A DNA stretch of 64,000 bases from the NCBI GenBank assembly GCA_965656525.1, contig CBFHKY010000017.1, forward strand, positions 7,924-71,923. The letters are read 5' to 3'. Source of the DNA: Pseudomaricurvus sp. Its GTDB lineage: Bacteria; Pseudomonadota; Gammaproteobacteria; Pseudomonadales; Cellvibrionaceae. Below the pieces are notes generated by a model. It was given only the letters and a program-made list of their open reading frames with translations, was not told the origin of the DNA and searched no databases. The translations under genes and the position numbers were made by a program. This document shows, piece by piece, positions 45,837 through 54,149 of the stretch. The stretch's first letter is position 1, and every line of letters starts with the position of its first letter.

Positions 45837-46274
45837 ATGGAAACCCCTGCTGGCGAAATAATCGTCTGCCACTTTCATGAAAGGCACAGTGATCTGCGAC
45901 AACTGCGCACAGCAGTTTTCATTCGAGAGCAACAGGTGTCAGAAGCTGAAGAGTGGGACGACAGAGACAAACACTGTGTGCACGTAGTGGTGCAGCGCAA
46001 CGGACAAGCCATTGCTTGCGGTCGGTTAGATCATAAATACGAAGGTAAAATAGGAAGAGTAGCTGTTCTAAAAGCTTTCCGTCGGCAGGGTTACGGCCTT
46101 GCCGTGATGCAAGCCCTAGAACAACGAGCCCATGTGCTGGGACTTCACACCGTTCACCTGAATGCTCAGACGGCGGCACTGCCGTTTTATGTACAACAAG
46201 GCTATATCAGCGAAGGCGATACCTTCCTCGAAGCGGGCATTGCCCACTGTAAAATGAAAAAAAGATTAGCCTGA
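45837..46274 (+). CDS. GNAT N-acetyltransferase (ElaA/YjcF-like)
   Basis: LRTAVFIREQ, IGRVAV...RRQGYG, LNAQ, FLEAGIAH. Confidence 0.88.
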   Translation: METPAGEIIVCHFHERHSDLRQLRTAVFIREQQVSEAEEWDDRDKHCVHVVVQRNGQAIACGRLDHKYEGKIGRVAVLKAFRRQGYGLAVMQALEQRAHVLGLHTVHLNAQTAALPFYVQQGYISEGDTFLEAGIAHCKMKKRLA

Positions 46275-48356
46275 AATCATCTCAGGCGCTCGATTCTGAC
46301 GTTGCGCCATCTCTAAGAGTTCTTGTAAAACAACCGGCTTGCCAAAACGGTACCCTTGCACCACATCACAACCGTGACGGCACACAAAATCGTATTGCTC
46401 AGCGGTTTCGACGCCCTCAGCCACCACTTTTAAATTCATATTATGTGCCATTACGATAATGGTTTTTACTAAGGTTTCATCGTCGCTATTTCGGTCTAAA
46501 TCCTGAATAAAAGAGCGATCAATTTTTAATGTGTGCAATGGCAATTGCTTTAAACGACTTAAAGATGAGTAGCCCGTACCGAAATCATCAATAGAGATTT
46601 CTACCCCTAGTTGATTAACCTCTTTCAACTGTTCCAGAACGTTATCCACCTCTGGACCAATCAAACTTTCGGTGATTTCCAGCTCCAATCGATGCCCTGG
46701 AAATCCAGTTCGAGTTAAAGCCTTCTCTACATCCAAAGACGCTCGGTTACGAGAAAAGTGGGACGGAGAGTAATTCACCGACAACTGCAGCTGATCAAAG
46801 CCCTGTTCATGTAAAGTCAGAATATCTCGGCAAGCGTGCTCCAGCACCCACAAGTCAATATCCGCAATCAACCCACACTCTTCTGCCAAAGGGATAAACT
46901 CTTCCGGCGACATCTCACCCTCTTCCGGGTCCAACCAGCGCAACAGCACCTCTACGCCTATCAATCGCTGATCGATACAGGACCACTTAGGTTGATACAC
47001 TCGCGTAAATATAGATTCATCCACAGCCCGTCGAAGTTTATTTTCTAATATTAAGCGCCGCTCAACTCGTGCGTTCATATCTGGAGCAAAGAAAGTAAAC
47101 CGATCACGGCCTCGATCTTTTGAGCGATACATAGCGGTGTCGGCGTTTTTTAGCAACTCATCAGCGCTGTCACCATCGGTGGGAAACACACTAATACCAA
47201 TACTCGCGGTCAATTGTAAGATATGGCCATTGAGCTGCATTGGACGCCGAACTTCAGCGATCATTGCGGCGGCTAGATCCCCTGTCGCTCCGGGGGTAAT
47301 ATCCACCAAAAGAACCGCAAACTCATCGCCACCCAGTCGCGCTAAAGTATCACCCTTGCGCAGGCAGGTTTTGAGACGCTCAGCGGTTTCTTCCAATAAA
47401 AGGTCACCAATGCCGTGCCCTAACGTATCGTTCACCACTTTAAAGCGATCCACATCCAAGAATAAAACCGACAGCGATTCATTGTGTAAACGCACATGAG
47501 CAATACCATCTTGCAAGCACCGATCAAAGGTTACACGGTTCGCTAGACCAGTGAGGGCATCGTGAAAAGCTTGATGCTCGAAACGACGGGCCAACAACTT
47601 TAACTCTTTTGTGCGCTCAGCCACCTTGTCTTCTAGCTGTTCTTGAGCCTGCCGCAACCCTGCATCACGAAGCTGAATTTCGTTCAACATCGCATTAAAG
47701 TCATTCGCCAGCAAGCCAATTTCATCTTGTGATTGCACCTCTGCCCGCAAACTGTAATCGCGGCTCTGAGTGATTCGGCGAGCGGTTTTGGTCAAGTTCA
47801 ATAGCGGCCGAGTCACCAGGCCTTGTAATCGCGAAGAAATAAACAAAGCCCAAAGTAAAGACAAAGCAAATAACGTTAACGCCATAACAATGCGGATACG
47901 TTGCTGCTCTTGCCACTCAGAATTGTCAGCAAGCAATAAAATAGAACCCACTAGCTCACCCTGTGCACGAATGGGCATCTGGGCGTAAAGCAATCCTTGA
48001 TATTTTCCTTGTGAGTTGGGTAACGGCTTTTCGGGTAGCGGCTGGGACGTATTCTGATAAAACGCAAATAGACGATCTGCTTTATCATAAATAGCAGCAC
48101 CAACAACACTGCCCTCACCAGTAAGACTAAACAAAGTGCGATTAGCCGCCTCAACGTCATCAAATAATAATGCGGCCTGCGTGTTGTGTCCGATAATCAA
48201 CGCATCCGATAACAACTGACTCATGAGTTGCGCTCGAGAAGAAAACCAATCATTGGCGGCAAAACCAGCGGTAGCAAGCAATAAGGCCGTACTACTGGCC
48301 ACAAGGATAACCAGCTGCAAGGTTTTTCCAATAGAGTCACAGACAATGAATTTCAT
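46266..48356 (-). CDS. Membrane diguanylate cyclase/phosphodiesterase: periplasmic CHASE8-like sensor, HAMP, GGDEF, EAL (YfiN-like)
   Basis: Two TMs flanking a sensor (ALLFDDVEAA), HAMP (DEIGLLANDFN), RKGD I-site, GGDEF, EVLLR, DDFGTGYSS, EGVE. Confidence 0.93.
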   Translation of the reverse strand: MKFIVCDSIGKTLQLVILVASSTALLLATAGFAANDWFSSRAQLMSQLLSDALIIGHNTQAALLFDDVEAANRTLFSLTGEGSVVGAAIYDKADRLFAFYQNTSQPLPEKPLPNSQGKYQGLLYAQMPIRAQGELVGSILLLADNSEWQEQQRIRIVMALTLFALSLLWALFISSRLQGLVTRPLLNLTKTARRITQSRDYSLRAEVQSQDEIGLLANDFNAMLNEIQLRDAGLRQAQEQLEDKVAERTKELKLLARRFEHQAFHDALTGLANRVTFDRCLQDGIAHVRLHNESLSVLFLDVDRFKVVNDTLGHGIGDLLLEETAERLKTCLRKGDTLARLGGDEFAVLLVDITPGATGDLAAAMIAEVRRPMQLNGHILQLTASIGISVFPTDGDSADELLKNADTAMYRSKDRGRDRFTFFAPDMNARVERRLILENKLRRAVDESIFTRVYQPKWSCIDQRLIGVEVLLRWLDPEEGEMSPEEFIPLAEECGLIADIDLWVLEHACRDILTLHEQGFDQLQLSVNYSPSHFSRNRASLDVEKALTRTGFPGHRLELEITESLIGPEVDNVLEQLKEVNQLGVEISIDDFGTGYSSLSRLKQLPLHTLKIDRSFIQDLDRNSDDETLVKTIIVMAHNMNLKVVAEGVETAEQYDFVCRHGCDVVQGYRFGKPVVLQELLEMAQRQNRAPEMISG

Positions 48357-48359
48357 GGT

Positions 48360-48989
48360 TTAAAATCGGTCTCCGACAATGCGCGCCAGCTTCAATAGCT
48401 CAGAGCTGGCCCTTAGGTTGTCTTTCAACAACTCTGCTAGATGAATTTCAAAGCCAATCCTTTTGCCTTTGCGAACTAAAGCGATGTGAACATTGTCGTG
48501 AGCAATACCTGTTCTCGGATTATCCGTTAAGTCAGCAACAACCAGTACCGACTCTGTATAAAAATCTTTTGCCTCAAGCTTGTAAGAGGCCAATTCACTG
48601 TCTGCAACCAACAGTAAATGACAACCGGCTAATGGAAAGGGCCAACGGTCCACTTCTTGTATTTTCAGCCTACGGCCTGAGATACGCTTGTGGGCAAATG
48701 GAGCAATGGCTCGCCCCAAAATATCACGCCGGTAATAACAGAGCTTAAACGGAGCTTGAGGGGTCTCGAAACGATCACTAGGCCAAACAATAAACTTAGC
48801 AACATTCAGCACAAAGGCCGTTTTAATCGACTTCTGCTGCAGTGTTGTTTCCGCTTGGCTCCATAGGCTGACACACAATCCCAGTACGATAATCAGAATA
48901 CGTACCGCTGTGACAGCCTTCACAGGGTTCTCAGAGTTATAGAAAATCGAGTATCTCGCCATTTGGTTTTTTTGTTTCAAATACAGCAA
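48360..48989 (-). CDS. YfiR/HmsC family periplasmic protein; start uncertain
   Basis: IKTAFVLNVAKFIVWP, two mature Cys, FEIHL...SSELLKLARIV. Confidence 0.85.
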   Translation of the reverse strand: MLYLKQKNQMARYSIFYNSENPVKAVTAVRILIIVLGLCVSLWSQAETTLQQKSIKTAFVLNVAKFIVWPSDRFETPQAPFKLCYYRRDILGRAIAPFAHKRISGRRLKIQEVDRWPFPLAGCHLLLVADSELASYKLEAKDFYTESVLVVADLTDNPRTGIAHDNVHIALVRKGKRIGFEIHLAELLKDNLRASSELLKLARIVGDRF

Positions 48990-48996
48990 GGCAACC

Positions 48997-51048
48997 TCAT
49001 CGCATTGGCGACCATGTCAGAGTTAACCAAAGGCTACGACGTTCTTTTTCTGTGTTGTACTGAGAACCAAAATCGGCCGCGAGATCCATCACTCGATCAT
49101 CCAAGACATTACTCACGCCCACCTGATAACTGAGTTGTTTGTGCAGGTCACCCTGTAAAAAGACACTCATCAAAGCAAAACGCTCTGCATCATCATCCGT
49201 TCGGGCATTCAGATCTTCGCGGTCATCATTAAACACGATGGACATACCTAGCTGATGACGAGGCAGCCACTGATAAGCCACATTGAAACTGCCACTCAAC
49301 TTAGCAATATAAGGAAGACGATAACCGCTCGATGTCAGTGAATCCACATAAGACAAGCCCAACCTTGTGGAAAGGCGATCATTCATGTGCAGCCCGAATA
49401 CGGCTTCAACACCATTGATTGTGAGATCGTAATCGGTGTTTCCATAATACTCGTCACGTCCATCTGGGGTCGGCATTTCAACAATATAGTCATCTATGTA
49501 ATTGTGATAAGCCGTGAAACTGACATCCCAGCGCGCCTGCTGATAACGGTAACTGGCTTCCAGCGATTGCAGTGTTTCTGCATCCAATTCACTGGGAGTA
49601 AAGTTGGAGGTATCCAACACCTTTAAGTATTCGCGTAAAGTGGGTGTGCGAATAGCGGTTCCGTAAAGCAACTTCCAAGTGTGCTCTTGTGCGGGTGAAT
49701 AAACCGCGGCAATACGATAATTAAAATAATTATCAAAATGTTCAAATACGTCGTAGCGTATGCCCGCGGTAAGTTTTAGTGCTGGAGTCCAGCTCCAGAC
49801 ATCCTGCAAAAAAACGCCGTAATCCTGCTTGCGGACGTCTGAATCTATTAACAGCGAGCCCGTGTTTGTTTGCGAAAGAAAACCTCTCGCAAAATGAAAG
49901 TCACGCTGGTAATCCATGTCACCCGCGGCTTCATAGCGCCATGTAGCGCCTAAAGCCCAAATGTGATTGCCAGTTTGCTGCAGCCCCGTAACGGACAAAC
50001 CTGCCATGGTGCCATTTTGCTGTTCTTCGTAACCTAAACGGTTGGTAAGCTGCTCTGTCTCATATTCAAGGATATTGTCTTGCTGATAATACAAATTAGT
50101 TTCAAGCCGCCCCGACTCGACCTCGCCCACATCATAAGACAAAGCCAACGACCAACTTTCGCTGTCTATATAAGCATCTTGAGTGGGAGGGATAAACAAA
50201 AACGGCGTCTCGGCAGCGCTGTAGTTAGCTGCCAAAGTCAAACCGGGCAATAGCTGCCCCTTTAAAGATAACGTGGTGTATTGTTCATCCAATGATTGCA
50301 GTACTTGATTGCCAATAAAGCTATAACGGTTATTGCTATAGGCGGCTTCGTGTTCAAGATAACTGCCAAAAGCCGTCATTTTTTCACTGCTGTAGTGAAG
50401 CGTGGACTTTGCTCGGTCGCCGCTACCGCTCTCTAGAGTGATAGCTAGGTTAGGGTCGGCGGTAAAACCTTTGGTGGTGATTGAGATCAAACCACTGAAC
50501 GCACTAGCACCATAAAGACTCGATGCAGGCCCAAGAATCACTTCAACTTTTTCAATCTGCTCCAAAGGCCATTCTTCACCCAAAGCAAAATGACCGTAAT
50601 ATAAGTGCTGACGCCGTACGCCGTCCACCAGTAGGATAAGCTTATCGTTATATCGGCTGACACTGCCTCGTGCCCATAAGGACTGATGGTTTTTACGGTA
50701 TTGATTCAACTGAAAGCCAGGGATAAACGGCAACAAATCCTCTACGCGACGCACACCAAAGCGCTTAAAATCGGCTTGATCAAAACTGTAAACTGTACCG
50801 GGTGCCTTCGCGGGTTGCTCGGGCAACAAGTTGGCGGACTCAAACACCTCTAGGGCAACCAAGTCTTGCAAAGACATACTCACCAACGACTCAGGAGGTG
50901 CAGCTACTGCCCGCACTTCCAGTTTCTCACCCTGTGCTCTGCTGGCAAAAATAAGAGGCAACAGGATAAGAAACACAGCGGCCCAATAATGCACTCTGAT
51001 TCCATTGCCTCCACTCCCCCCCATGTGCGGCGGCCAAAATGAACTCAT
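48997..51048 (-). CDS. TonB-dependent receptor-like protein (signalling subfamily)
   Basis: Signal peptide; MSLQDLVALEV, KAPGTV, LLVDG, IEKVEVILGPASSLYGASAFSGLISI plug; beta-barrel C-terminus. Confidence 0.88.
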   Translation of the reverse strand: MSSFWPPHMGGSGGNGIRVHYWAAVFLILLPLIFASRAQGEKLEVRAVAAPPESLVSMSLQDLVALEVFESANLLPEQPAKAPGTVYSFDQADFKRFGVRRVEDLLPFIPGFQLNQYRKNHQSLWARGSVSRYNDKLILLVDGVRRQHLYYGHFALGEEWPLEQIEKVEVILGPASSLYGASAFSGLISITTKGFTADPNLAITLESGSGDRAKSTLHYSSEKMTAFGSYLEHEAAYSNNRYSFIGNQVLQSLDEQYTTLSLKGQLLPGLTLAANYSAAETPFLFIPPTQDAYIDSESWSLALSYDVGEVESGRLETNLYYQQDNILEYETEQLTNRLGYEEQQNGTMAGLSVTGLQQTGNHIWALGATWRYEAAGDMDYQRDFHFARGFLSQTNTGSLLIDSDVRKQDYGVFLQDVWSWTPALKLTAGIRYDVFEHFDNYFNYRIAAVYSPAQEHTWKLLYGTAIRTPTLREYLKVLDTSNFTPSELDAETLQSLEASYRYQQARWDVSFTAYHNYIDDYIVEMPTPDGRDEYYGNTDYDLTINGVEAVFGLHMNDRLSTRLGLSYVDSLTSSGYRLPYIAKLSGSFNVAYQWLPRHQLGMSIVFNDDREDLNARTDDDAERFALMSVFLQGDLHKQLSYQVGVSNVLDDRVMDLAADFGSQYNTEKERRSLWLTLTWSPMR

Positions 51049-51333
51049 GCTTCCCCCAATAATAAACTCGTATCACAGACACAAGTTGGCAGCCCCACCT
51101 GCCATCGAACAGGAATTATAAAGGAAAAAAGCGCCAAAATGCTGACTTAAGCTGCTCAAACCCAAATAACTGGCAGAAATAAGCACTGCTCACAACCAAA
51201 GCTAGGGTAATTTACGACTGAAAATAAGATGTTACCGCTTAGAGGAACACATAGACTCACAGCACCCCCAAAGGATCAACCTCTGGGTGTGCTTACTTGA
51301 GAACAGAGAGGTCAGGCAAAATAATGGCAGCAT

Positions 51334-52530
51334 TTATTGTGAGCGGTGCTCGCGAAACTTTTGCAAACGCTCTTGAGTAGGCGGGTGTGACGACAAATAA
51401 CCACTGATATTCTTCACCCCACTGTCTTCACCATCGGGTATTTTATCAGCACCAGATAACGAGGAATCACTGCTTGCCAGCTCTCGGTAACACTCAAGCC
51501 CGGCCTTTGAACCCCGACCTTCACTTTCTGTATTGGGTGTTTCAGAGCGCGACCAAGAGGCATATGTACATTCTGAAGACAGCTCTAGCCGACTCATCAA
51601 TGCCACAAAATTGGAAGGCGAGATATCGGCACTCGTTAAATATTGCAGCGCAAAATCATCTGCCTGACGCTCAAAGCCCCGCGAGTGTGACAACTCCAGC
51701 AGAACGACCGGTGCGGTTAAAAACCAGCTGGACGAAGCCGAAACATCTCCGGTAAATACCAGCAACACCCCAGCCATCAGAGAGCTTCGTACCATAGCTT
51801 GCAGGCTGTGCTTTTCAGCCACATGGCCGACTTCGTGTGCCAATACGGCCAATAACTCATCGTCATGACGAGATAGCGCCACCATCTGATCTGTAAATAT
51901 CAGAGTGCCATCGGGCAGCGCGAAAGCGTTAGCACCAATAGGCCCGCCATCGCGAAACAACACTTTTATTGTCAATTCAGGATAACGGCTCAGCAACGAT
52001 TGAAAATGTGTTTGGATTCTCTGCTGTTCAGAATTCGATAGCTGTGAGGGCTTGAAGAATTGCTCATTCAGTGTCGATAGCGTGTGCTCACTGATCACTT
52101 CAGCCACCTTATCCGGCAGCATAAAAGCCACTGGTTTTGCCAAAGCCGGCACACCATACACGACAAGTGCCCACACCAACGCCGCCACAGAAATCAAAGA
52201 CAGCGCCACAAAGTGCCAGTGGGATTCCAGCTTATGCACCCACATGTCCCATACAGAGCCATGCCACTGACTGACCCACTGATCCAACTGCTCGTTATCG
52301 CGTGTTTCGAATTTCCCACCATCGCTAAAATCGATACAGCGCGGTGTTTGCCCTAACCGTGGCGACACCTTTAGCTCAGTAAATAACTGCTTGCAGACTT
52401 TTTGGCCCGCCACATAGATCCGAGCGCAACCCTCATCATCCACATTGAGAGTTGCACCTCGTGCCTGAGACGTTTTGCCGTCGAAATATTGCCCACTGAT
52501 ACTGTTGCCACGAAAAGAACGGCCGCTCAT
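51334..52530 (-). CDS. M48 family zinc metalloprotease (YjgN partner)
   Basis: GQYFDGKTS N-terminal domain, TM, ANAFALPDG, HEVGH, FERQAD, SSHPPT. Confidence 0.9.
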   Translation of the reverse strand: MSGRSFRGNSISGQYFDGKTSQARGATLNVDDEGCARIYVAGQKVCKQLFTELKVSPRLGQTPRCIDFSDGGKFETRDNEQLDQWVSQWHGSVWDMWVHKLESHWHFVALSLISVAALVWALVVYGVPALAKPVAFMLPDKVAEVISEHTLSTLNEQFFKPSQLSNSEQQRIQTHFQSLLSRYPELTIKVLFRDGGPIGANAFALPDGTLIFTDQMVALSRHDDELLAVLAHEVGHVAEKHSLQAMVRSSLMAGVLLVFTGDVSASSSWFLTAPVVLLELSHSRGFERQADDFALQYLTSADISPSNFVALMSRLELSSECTYASWSRSETPNTESEGRGSKAGLECYRELASSDSSLSGADKIPDGEDSGVKNISGYLSSHPPTQERLQKFREHRSQ

Positions 52531-52544
52531 ATTGTTGTCATACT

Positions 52545-54149
52545 TTAAAATCCAAAATCAAGATCGTACAGCTCACCCAGCTCTTCACCCAGCGCACTCA
52601 CGTGTTCGGATTCGGACGCAACAAACTGATCCATAGAAGCGGTCGCGTTAACACGCATATGATCAGCGCGATATTGGGCCGTTCTTACCAGTGCCCAAGG
52701 CCGGTAAAGCCCTAAGGTGAGTATCGTTAATAGCGTATTCACGAATACTAACTTGCCGTAAGACACCAAGGCATAATTGGCTTCTAGCTGGAAGCCATCA
52801 ATACTTGCATTGTTGTACACCAAATTATTCATTCTCACTTGGTAGTACACCAGCGGAAACAAATAAACGATACCCATGATCAGGTAAGTACTAATCAATA
52901 TAGGAACCATAGCCCCCGCCCATAGCTCTGGATTATCTTGAGCACTACTCAACATGCCCATCGACACACCAAAAAGAGCCATAACCAGCACCAGTAAACC
53001 AATGGCTAAGGCAAAAGCGATCACAGAAAAGAAAACCAATTTGCCCCATAAGCGATAAAAATCGTGTGATGTCACGTCCAGTTCAAAGCAACTGGTGCCG
53101 TACAAGGAATTATCGATGAAGAAGCGCTTTTGTTGGTACAAGAAAAAGGGCACACCCACACCAAAAACGATCAAGATAGGCAGCAGCATTAACCAAAACC
53201 ATGATGTTGCAGCCACTACCCCACCACCAACCGCAAAGGTTAAACCAAATAAAATGGGTATACCGGCAAAAATCAGTGCTGACTCTTTAAATGTGCCTTC
53301 AAAGTTAAAGCGCACGCTTCGGTAGGCGCTGTTACGAGCATTAAACATCAATGATCGCTGTACAAAAAAGGGAGACGCCAAGAGCACAATCCCCAATGCC
53401 ATCAACGACACCCACCAAATAGGCACGTTACTCATTAAGGAATACCCAATAAACAATGCCACCGCGATCACTCGCCCCTTAAGAATGGCAATGGGGCTGG
53501 CTAGGTAAGAAAATGTGGAACCATCCAGTTCGGTGTTTCCGTAAAAATATTGCTTGTTACGGACCTTAGCCCACGCCGAATAAATGCCGAGTGTCACCAC
53601 TGACAAAAGAATATTAACAATCCAGATGCGAAAATATTCGCTGCCACTGCCATGAAAAAGAAATGGCAGTGTGCGCTCAGACTCTTCTGATCGATGACTG
53701 GCCGGCGGAACTGTTGGTCTTGCTGGCGAAACAGTGTCCTGCTTAGCCATCGACACTTCTTGGGGTGAAACTTGCGGGGCAATGGCTTGAACGCCAGCTG
53801 TCGCGGTCTGAGTAACATCCACCTCAGAACTCTTATCGGAAGACGTGACAGAAGGGATAGGAGATACGGTTTCAATAACCCCTAGCGCGCCAAGCTGTTC
53901 TAATTGACGCTGATAATGACGAGCGGCGACCTCATCAAGGTTGGATTTGAGTGTGATTTTACTGGCCAAAAAGATCTGTTCGACCCTTTCCGGGCTCAAT
54001 TTAAAAGCTTTAGTGAAGTTCTGTTTCACACGCTCGGGGGAAGCACCAGACAATACCTCACCATAAAAGACAACTTTATAGCGTACTTTTTTTCTAGCTT
54101 CCGTTTTTTCCGGCTGCTCACCCTTCGATGACATCATCATATGATCCAT
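52545..54149 (-). CDS. YjgN (DUF898) membrane protein with an extra N-terminal soluble domain
   Basis: FHGSGSEYFRIWIVNILLSVVTLGIYSAWAKVR, TLGLYRPWA, ALGEE...DLDFGF. Confidence 0.88.
   Translation of the reverse strand: MDHMMMSSKGEQPEKTEARKKVRYKVVFYGEVLSGASPERVKQNFTKAFKLSPERVEQIFLASKITLKSNLDEVAARHYQRQLEQLGALGVIETVSPIPSVTSSDKSSEVDVTQTATAGVQAIAPQVSPQEVSMAKQDTVSPARPTVPPASHRSEESERTLPFLFHGSGSEYFRIWIVNILLSVVTLGIYSAWAKVRNKQYFYGNTELDGSTFSYLASPIAILKGRVIAVALFIGYSLMSNVPIWWVSLMALGIVLLASPFFVQRSLMFNARNSAYRSVRFNFEGTFKESALIFAGIPILFGLTFAVGGGVVAATSWFWLMLLPILIVFGVGVPFFLYQQKRFFIDNSLYGTSCFELDVTSHDFYRLWGKLVFFSVIAFALAIGLLVLVMALFGVSMGMLSSAQDNPELWAGAMVPILISTYLIMGIVYLFPLVYYQVRMNNLVYNNASIDGFQLEANYALVSYGKLVFVNTLLTILTLGLYRPWALVRTAQYRADHMRVNATASMDQFVASESEHVSALGEELGELYDLDFGF

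Follow-up and report, generated by a model that had tools for sequence, protein, structure and literature searches.

YfiBNR is the textbook case of a periplasmic repressor that controls cyclic dimeric guanosine monophosphate (c-di-GMP). In YfiBNR (TpbB/DgcN-YfiR-YfiB; Pseudomonas aeruginosa, Escherichia coli) and in HmsCDE from Yersinia pestis, the gene of a DUF4154 protein adjoins that of a CHASE8-HAMP-GGDEF membrane enzyme, and the operon also encodes an outer-membrane protein. These features are also found in a locus of Pseudomaricurvus sp. (assembly GCA_965656525.1), which lies in a stretch of 64,000 nucleotides (nt) of contig CBFHKY010000017.1 (positions 7,924 to 71,923), referred to here as the window. 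The locus encodes a TonB-dependent receptor (TBDR), a YfiR-like protein, and a CHASE8-HAMP-GGDEF-EAL sensor enzyme (Table 1). The likeness to YfiBNR/HmsCDE extends to strand β7, the hydrophobic pocket, and the first cysteine pair of YfiR, which are conserved. It differs in the outer-membrane partner, which is an upstream TBDR instead of a downstream OmpA-like lipoprotein, in the lack of a detected YfiB in the genome, in a YfiR-like protein that has neither the C145/C152 disulfide nor a match to the curated YfiR equivalog, and in an enzyme to which an intact EAL domain is added.

The association has already been catalogued in NCBIfam in its kinase version, as a trio of families named for and defined by gene context alone: NF053590 (TOL_0244 family TBDR), NF053591 (TOL_0243 family YfiR-like protein), and NF053592 (YfiR-like-associated sensor histidine kinase). 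This trio shares with the window the order TBDR > YfiR-like > CHASE8-HAMP sensor and the same three input parts, but its output is a histidine kinase and not a GGDEF-EAL enzyme. NF053590 and NF053592 are among the top NCBIfam matches for the receptor and for the N-terminal module of the sensor, respectively, and NF053591 is the sole match for the YfiR-like protein, all below the curated cut-offs (97.8 bits versus 645 for NF053590, 70.2 versus 125 for NF053591, and 184 versus 194 for NF053592, which covers sensor residues 8-228). The window locus is a GGDEF-EAL-output member of a diverged branch. A first-pass annotation, made from the letters of the window, knew of no mechanistic characterization of such a trio, and full-text literature searches likewise found no published description or test of a YfiR-TBDR link.

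Two further groups of systems invite comparison. In LuxP-LuxQ, TorT-TorS, and ChvE-VirA, a membrane sensor likewise responds, through its periplasmic domain, to a soluble protein of the periplasm, but the binding proteins are two-lobed with a defined ligand cleft, and the modules are not known to include a dedicated outer-membrane receptor. In contrast to the FecA/FpvA-type transducers, which act with FecR/FecI, the window receptor has no STN domain and only a flexible extension, no anti-sigma/sigma pair is present, a soluble protein of the periplasm would act as relay, and c-di-GMP is the output. The distinctness from FecIRA signaling that had been claimed for the locus is borne out by the missing STN domain and FecIR-type partner.

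The main new result concerns a motif in the N-terminal segment of the receptor, which tracks DUF4154 across genomes. Good support exists for the module and for a coupling of the receptor to YfiR, whereas their contact and control by a ligand are proposed. The best explanation of the whole, given a probability of roughly 0.42 and drawn in part by analogy with YfiBNR/HmsCDE, is an operon-encoded chain in which this segment would serve as a handle that captures the YfiR-like protein, upon which the output of the sensor would flip.

Gene context of DUF4154 proteins

Across 400 evenly sampled Gammaproteobacteria genomes, PF13689 (DUF4154) matched 87 genes in 57 genomes, and the neighbors within flanks of 6 kb on each side were classed by hidden Markov models (HMMs) built for this census. 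A co-directional TBDR lies immediately upstream in 48/87 loci and in another adjacent position in about 10 more (about 58/87 in total). Immediately downstream, a CHASE8-HAMP sensor follows in 58/87 loci. Complete TBDR > YfiR > CHASE8-sensor trios number 35, and their sensors are hybrid histidine kinases (26), GGDEF-EAL enzymes (eight), and a GGDEF enzyme (one). Across all 39 kinase-type partners, whether or not a receptor is adjacent, Pfam finds CHASE8 in 39, HATPase_c in 38, HisKA in 37, REC in 27, and Hpt in 18. In many of the kinase versions, a separate GGDEF-EAL gene comes next. YfiR-sensor pairs without an adjoining receptor account for about 20/87 loci, and the canonical yfiR-yfiN-yfiB order was found at one locus only (L084). 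Most DUF4154 genes have the TBDR-linked arrangement, and the arrangement with YfiB is the exception.

The locus had originally been described as having a TBDR in place of YfiB. This holds insofar as no yfiB is present in the operon or was detected in the genome, but the proportions are reversed, with the YfiB arrangement at 1/87 loci. The genome (3.4 Mb, 71 contigs, 91% complete) has a single DUF4154 gene, which is that of the window. A yfiB elsewhere that controls this YfiR had been named as an observation that would speak against the proposal; searches of the 91%-complete genome with E. coli YfiB and NF053585 gave only generic OmpA-domain matches, the best of which scores 97.8 bits versus a cut-off of 128.

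Among close relatives in named genomes (28-53% identity), 17/19 keep the identical TBDR > YfiR > CHASE8-HAMP-GGDEF-EAL order with differing flanking genes. They belong to Pseudomaricurvus spp., other Cellvibrionaceae, Halioxenophilus, Pontibacterium, Amphritea, Methylotuvimicrobium, and Methylomicrobium (Methylococcaceae). The earlier guess that the trio recurs in other genomes, for which a synteny census had been suggested, is supported by these relatives together with the 35 trios of the census. The three proteins co-diverge (Mantel r 0.70-0.74, 41 trios), correlations that show co-inheritance only and do not separate mechanisms. The three genes are inherited together across orders as one conserved functional unit.

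Tandem input pairs of the form TBDR > YfiR > TBDR > YfiR occur at L024:5989-11248 and L055:4398-10280, in which each receptor keeps its own YfiR. In L024, one CHASE8 kinase comes after the tandem. Receptor and YfiR are fused by in-frame read-through in L024, L063, and L064.

A further recurrent context of DUF4154 was seen in L075, L078, and L088, where a DAHL-domain histidine kinase gene lies immediately upstream of the YfiR-like gene and neither a TBDR nor a CHASE8 sensor is present.

The receptor and its N-terminal motif

The receptor matches Pfam Plug (58 bits) and TonB_dep_Rec_b-barrel (127 bits). In its AF2 model (predicted local distance difference test (pLDDT) 76.7, predicted template modeling score 0.81), the plug sits within a full 22-strand barrel that superposes on Cir and BtuB in Foldseek (template modeling (TM) score 0.79-0.87), in agreement with the TBDR-like barrel of the first-pass annotation. 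No STN domain is matched by Pfam, and only about 35-40 residues separate the signal peptide from the plug. This segment (residues 36-72) is predicted to be flexible, with a pLDDT below 50.

Directly past the signal peptide, the receptor family carries the motif (L/M)SLE(E/D)L(M/L)x(I/V)EVTSVSKK, the second half of which takes the position of the TonB box. The motif is present in 38/38 aligned YfiR-linked TBDRs, and L63 is invariant. In the window receptor the copy reads SLQDLVALEVFES and is matched by the motif profile at E=2.4e-11. Its TonB-box position holds the variant ALEVFES, and TonB dependence is a prediction. The genome harbors 27 TBDRs and nine TonB_C matches (Pfam/HMM). None of the other 26 TBDRs contains the family motif; in most of those with a readable box, this is of the classical EEVVVTA type.

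In a FastTree phylogeny of 82 TBDRs, 56/58 YfiR-neighbor TBDRs form one clade apart from 24 other TBDRs of the window genome, at a support of 93 that is SH-like only and with the window genome's own paralogues as the sole outgroup. The window receptor lies inside this 56-member clade on a long branch. The YfiR-linked TBDRs are a dedicated receptor subfamily with a motif of its own.

Two peculiarities of the window receptor stand beside the motif. Residues 41-49 (EKLEVRAVA, window 50902-50928), directly past the predicted signal-peptide cleavage site and upstream of the SLxDL motif, form a second TonB-box-like stretch of alternating hydrophobic residues that most relatives do not have. The C-terminus (window 48997-49011) ends in ...LWLTLTWSPMR, four residues beyond the usual barrel-closing terminal aromatic, where the family consensus ends in F.

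Co-occurrence of the motif with DUF4154

The distribution of the motif was followed with a 40-column profile trained on linked receptors, and the matches counted cover the SLEEL part. A census with the full-length receptor profile, which covers the best three matches per genome, is partly circular (the training sequences score highest), and the short motif profile was relied on instead. In the class sample (400 genomes), it gave 88 matches in 47 genomes from 43 genera. DUF4154 is present in 47/47 of these genomes, and the motif was found in 0/343 DUF4154-negative genomes. In a phylum sample of 391 genomes, DUF4154 is present in 70/74 motif-positive genomes versus a base rate of 93/391. The four exceptions comprise one false positive, one 451-bp contig, and the genomes G620 and G703, which are considered further below.

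A YfiR gene adjoins 50/88 motif receptors. The other 38 are concentrated in few genomes, with motif receptors and YfiR genes in numbers of 10:9, 8:2, 7:2, and 8:5, and these genomes also hold YfiR-sensor pairs that lack an adjacent receptor. Such many-to-few numbers fit a common handle that is read by a shared partner. With a dedicated clade and an N-terminal motif that predicts DUF4154 in the genome, the link between receptor and YfiR is stronger than synteny alone. A dedicated TBDR is the commonest partner of YfiR-like proteins in Gammaproteobacteria and the wider phylum.

The co-occurrence bears on an alternative in which the receptor works as any TonB-driven importer does and takes up a compound that is scarce or bulky. 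The compound would bind the YfiR-like protein, which has half of a binding-protein fold, and shift its hold on CHASE8; receptor and YfiR would never touch. Such a role would be in keeping with the complete plug-and-barrel transporter fold near Cir/BtuB and the nine TonB_C matches, and the absence of an adjacent inner-membrane transporter fits a ligand that is needed only in the periplasm. The only experimental datum available, a 7-fold increase of the prototype TOL_0244 protein in Thalassolituus oleivorans on the n-C28 alkane, was read by its authors as pointing to an uptake protein (PMC6304351). Import followed by sensing leaves unexplained, however, why a subfamily-specific flexible motif tracks DUF4154 (47/47 and 70/74 genomes) and why many motif receptors stand alongside few YfiR genes; it ranks here as the main rival, at somewhat lower odds than direct capture. 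The motif co-occurrence favors direct coupling of receptor and YfiR over this simple scheme and is not proof of it.

The YfiR-like protein

The YfiR-like protein belongs to PF13689 (DUF4154, YfiR/HmsC-like, 88 bits). A profile of the linked family matches YfiR in the Protein Data Bank (4zhu) at E=3.6e-19; the family profile was required, as a single-sequence search with P0002 reaches YfiR only at E=1. In Foldseek, the top 15 matches of the AF2 model (pLDDT 87.8) are all YfiR (TM 0.70-0.75). The curated YfiR equivalog NF053586, on which E. coli YfiR scores 168 bits, is not matched by P0002 at E<=0.01.

In the solved structure of YfiR with YfiB, strand β7 and a hydrophobic pocket of YfiR take up the unwound YfiB (PMC4655355). 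The linked family keeps both elements, as R/K-I/V-R-F-E-I/V-N-L and as I/V/L pocket residues. The fold of YfiR has been likened to a lobe of substrate-binding proteins (PMC4655355), and Foldseek ranks 16-20 of the window model reflect a likeness of the N-terminal lobe of such proteins, a resemblance that is in line with import followed by sensing. For the single-lobe YfiR-like proteins of this clade, however, no ligand pocket is known.

The mature protein contains one cysteine pair, C84/C123, as read in the first-pass annotation. It corresponds to C71/C110 of P. aeruginosa YfiR (PaYfiR) and is at least 90% conserved. The protein lacks the other pair of PaYfiR, C145/C152, whose positions in the alignment are taken by P158 and A170. 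A further cysteine, C39, falls within the signal peptide. A lipoprotein was considered for the YfiR-like protein and rejected, as Leu precedes C39 and no lipobox fits by eye.

The remaining pair matches the redox-sensitive pair of PaYfiR (PMC4655355; PMC8846402 for HmsC), which would suit a looser arrangement: the YfiR-like protein and the sensor could form a self-contained periplasmic sensor of redox or envelope stress, as proposed for HmsC/HmsD, with the receptor as co-expressed cargo or as a target of the pathway that takes no part in the input. The YfiR-sensor pairs without an adjacent receptor (about 20/87) point the same way. This arrangement is improbable in view of the receptor-first order at translational-coupling distances in 48/87 loci, the dedicated receptor clade, the co-occurrence of receptor motif and DUF4154 by genome, the co-divergence of the three proteins, and the existence of tandem receptor-YfiR pairs.

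Residues 157-166 of the YfiR-like protein (NPRTGIAHDN, window 48492-48521) contain a loop insertion of about five residues. It is common to GGDEF-EAL-linked relatives (Pseudomaricurvus and others) and is not found in the kinase-linked majority.

The sensor enzyme

The sensor enzyme matches CHASE8 (60 bits), HAMP (43 bits), GGDEF (162 bits), and EAL (235 bits) in Pfam. What had been called a CHASE8-like/HAMP/GGDEF/EAL protein therefore contains CHASE8 proper (PF17152, 60 bits). In the translation, RKGD-x5-GGDEF spans residues 333-346 and EVL residues 469-471, and the EAL domain has its N, ExxE, DD, K, E, and Q residues. The GGDEF, RxxD I-site, and EAL motifs reported as intact are thus all present, and they are close to 100% conserved in the 32 YfiR-linked GGDEF-EAL homologs across which catalytic residues were counted (Table 1). 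By its intact active-site and I-site motifs, the sensor is predicted to be a bifunctional-type GGDEF-EAL enzyme. The NCBIfam model of DgcN/YfiN reaches 260 bits versus a cut-off of 325, with the additional EAL domain lying downstream.

The same genome encodes a 515-residue methyl-accepting chemotaxis protein with a CHASE8-like/HAMP module (contig C16:12949-14496, 162 bits to the sensor HMM). Neither a YfiR nor a TBDR adjoins it, and the lone YfiR-like protein of the genome might also act on it. The c-di-GMP network seems very rich for a genome of 3.4 Mb, with about 38 GGDEF-containing and 18 EAL-containing open reading frames (ORFs) in an ORF-level HMM search.

Proposed mechanism

From homology to YfiBNR/HmsCDE and the conserved YfiR binding face, a chain from the YfiR-like protein through CHASE8 and HAMP to GGDEF-EAL is proposed. 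By analogy with these systems, the YfiR-like protein would bind the periplasmic CHASE8 domain with its face of strand β7 and hydrophobic pocket and hold the enzyme in one output state. Binding of a ligand to the receptor would free the N-terminal segment, with the SLxDLxxLEV motif and the TonB-box position, into the periplasm. Once free, the segment would pair with the YfiR-like protein by strand addition and so capture it, in the manner of unwound YfiB in the solved complex and of TonB on a TonB box. When the sensor loses YfiR, the HAMP-GGDEF-EAL module would flip, and the level of c-di-GMP would change. The first-pass annotation had likewise proposed that an extracellular ligand bound by the TBDR toggles YfiR and with it a bifunctional cyclase/phosphodiesterase, an interpretation that is partly supported.

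The receptor step, direct capture by the flexible handle upon ligand binding, is put forward tentatively, at a little under even odds. It is preferred because the handle is specific to the subfamily, tracks YfiR across genomes, and is common to receptors with diverged barrels, and because strand addition to an unwound N-terminal segment is an established way for YfiR to bind a partner. The tandem pairs in L024 and L055, the flexible segment, and the nine TonB_C matches are also counted in favor of direct coupling.

Several observations weigh against direct capture. The motif of the window receptor is diverged and has VFES where the family has VTSV. The conserved face of YfiR would be needed for sensor binding anyway and is no evidence on receptor binding. 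Of the motif-bearing receptors, 38/88 do not adjoin a YfiR gene. G620 and G703 are genuine exceptions. The first, a fragmented genome, has the motif without DUF4154; in the second, a motif receptor stands beside an unrelated 280-residue protein and an sCache_4-GGDEF sensor, and the order at this locus (L134:1969-10461) is CHASE8-like-GGDEF-EAL > TBDR > TBDR with a SLEEQ motif > 280-residue protein > sCache_4-GGDEF. The 280-residue protein has no Pfam match and may substitute for YfiR. Shared descent of the cassette, and not a physical interface, could give the co-occurrence of motif and YfiR, the Fisher test applied to it ignores phylogeny, and the motif profile has its training on linked receptors. 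Lastly, a sister cassette of TBDR > PF04392 binding protein > sCache_4-HAMP kinase (L100, L112, L103) has the classic layout for presenting a ligand and speaks for import followed by sensing.

The sister cassette spans L100:1452-6449, L112:4968-9464, and L103:3983-7088, and consists of a TBDR, a PF04392 "ABC_sub_bind" protein of about 320 residues, and an sCache_4-HAMP histidine kinase. Its TBDRs are related to the YfiR-linked clade and yet have no SLEEL motif. Two of the three loci are in DUF4154-free genomes; the genome of L100 (G397) has DUF4154. YfiR resembles one lobe of the PF04392 binding-protein fold.

Direct capture, if generalized, would make the TBDR/YfiR-like/CHASE8 cassette a third general route of TBDR signaling beside FecA-type sigma regulation and import followed by sensing. 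A generic handle, exposed on ligand binding, would draw the soluble YfiR-like repressor away from CHASE8 sensors, one YfiR-sensor pair could serve several receptors that differ in ligand, and the outputs (kinase, GGDEF-EAL, chemoreceptor) would be interchangeable. This generalization is less likely than not. If the receptor does report its ligand occupancy through the YfiR-like protein, a widespread and unstudied route would lead from extracellular compounds to c-di-GMP, and to phosphorelays in the sister versions, with a bearing on biofilm and motility decisions of marine and methane-oxidizing bacteria. The co-occurrence of motif and YfiR narrows an observation of gene neighborhood to a specific question, namely whether a peptide of about 30 residues binds the YfiR-like protein. 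Culturable relatives that carry the identical trio include Pseudomaricurvus, Halioxenophilus aromaticivorans, and Methylotuvimicrobium.

Operon and neighborhood

The three tightly coupled genes of the first-pass annotation, with gaps of 7 nt (48990-48996, TBDR to YfiR-like) and 3 nt (48357-48359, YfiR-like to sensor), were recovered as minus-strand ORFs with exactly the boundaries it had assigned (Table 1). The YfiR-like ORF starts with a TTG at 48989, 7 nt past the TGA of the receptor, and is preceded at a distance of 5 nt by a GAGG Shine-Dalgarno sequence that overlaps the TBDR stop codon. The ATG of the sensor lies 3 nt beyond the TAA of the YfiR-like gene in the same frame. These short gaps, the Shine-Dalgarno sequence over the upstream stop, and the terminator-like hairpin past the third gene point to a single operon of the three genes, which is predicted to encode an envelope-spanning signaling chain. 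A sigma-70 consensus scan of the 285-nt upstream spacer found nothing above chance, and the promoter was not located.

Table 1. Positions in the window of the genes, domains, and sequence elements of the TBDR/YfiR-like/sensor locus. Residue counts out of 32 refer to YfiR-linked GGDEF-EAL homologs.
Feature	Position	Strand	Description
TBDR gene	48997-51048	minus	683 residues (P0001); ORF call and Pfam
Receptor N-terminal periplasmic motif	50833..50895 (residues 52-72)	minus	PESLVSMSLQDLVALEVFES; diverged copy of the family motif, spans the TonB-box position
Plug domain	50491..50811 (residues 80-186)	minus	PF07715, 58 bits; pLDDT about 85-93
YfiR-like gene	48360-48989	minus	209 residues (P0002); signal peptide, DUF4154
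Sensor-enzyme gene	46266-48356	minus	696 residues (P0003); inner-membrane CHASE8-HAMP-GGDEF-EAL
CHASE8 periplasmic sensor domain	47934..48233 (residues 42-141)	minus	PF17152, 60 bits; expected docking site of the YfiR-like protein
GGDEF domain	47100..47570 (residues 263-419)	minus	RKGD I-site and intact GGDEF; R 30/32, D 32/32, GGDEF 31-32/32
EAL domain	46335..47042 (residues 439-674)	minus	catalytic E, L, R, N, ExxE, DD, K, E, Q each 32/32
Upstream intergenic region	51049..51333	minus	285 nt between M48 peptidase stop and TBDR start; presumed operon promoter region
Terminator-like hairpin and T-run at the end of the third gene	46259..46287 (hairpin 46287-46269)	minus	GCCTGAGATGATTTCAGGC then TAATCTTTTT; pattern match of a consensus scan only

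By Pfam, the upstream neighbors encode an M48 peptidase and a DUF898 protein. The downstream, convergent neighbors encode a GNAT acetyltransferase, an M20 peptidase, a tetrahydrodipicolinate succinyltransferase-like protein (THDPS and hexapeptide domains), and ArsC. As had been noted for sigma/anti-sigma pairs and uptake genes, Pfam searches of the neighbors found none of these adjacent to the trio, nor ATP-binding cassette genes or an inner-membrane transporter. The upstream genes (window 51334-54149) encode a DUF898 membrane protein of 534 residues followed by a DUF7092-M48 peptidase of 398 residues, and they are co-directional with the trio at a distance of 285 nt.

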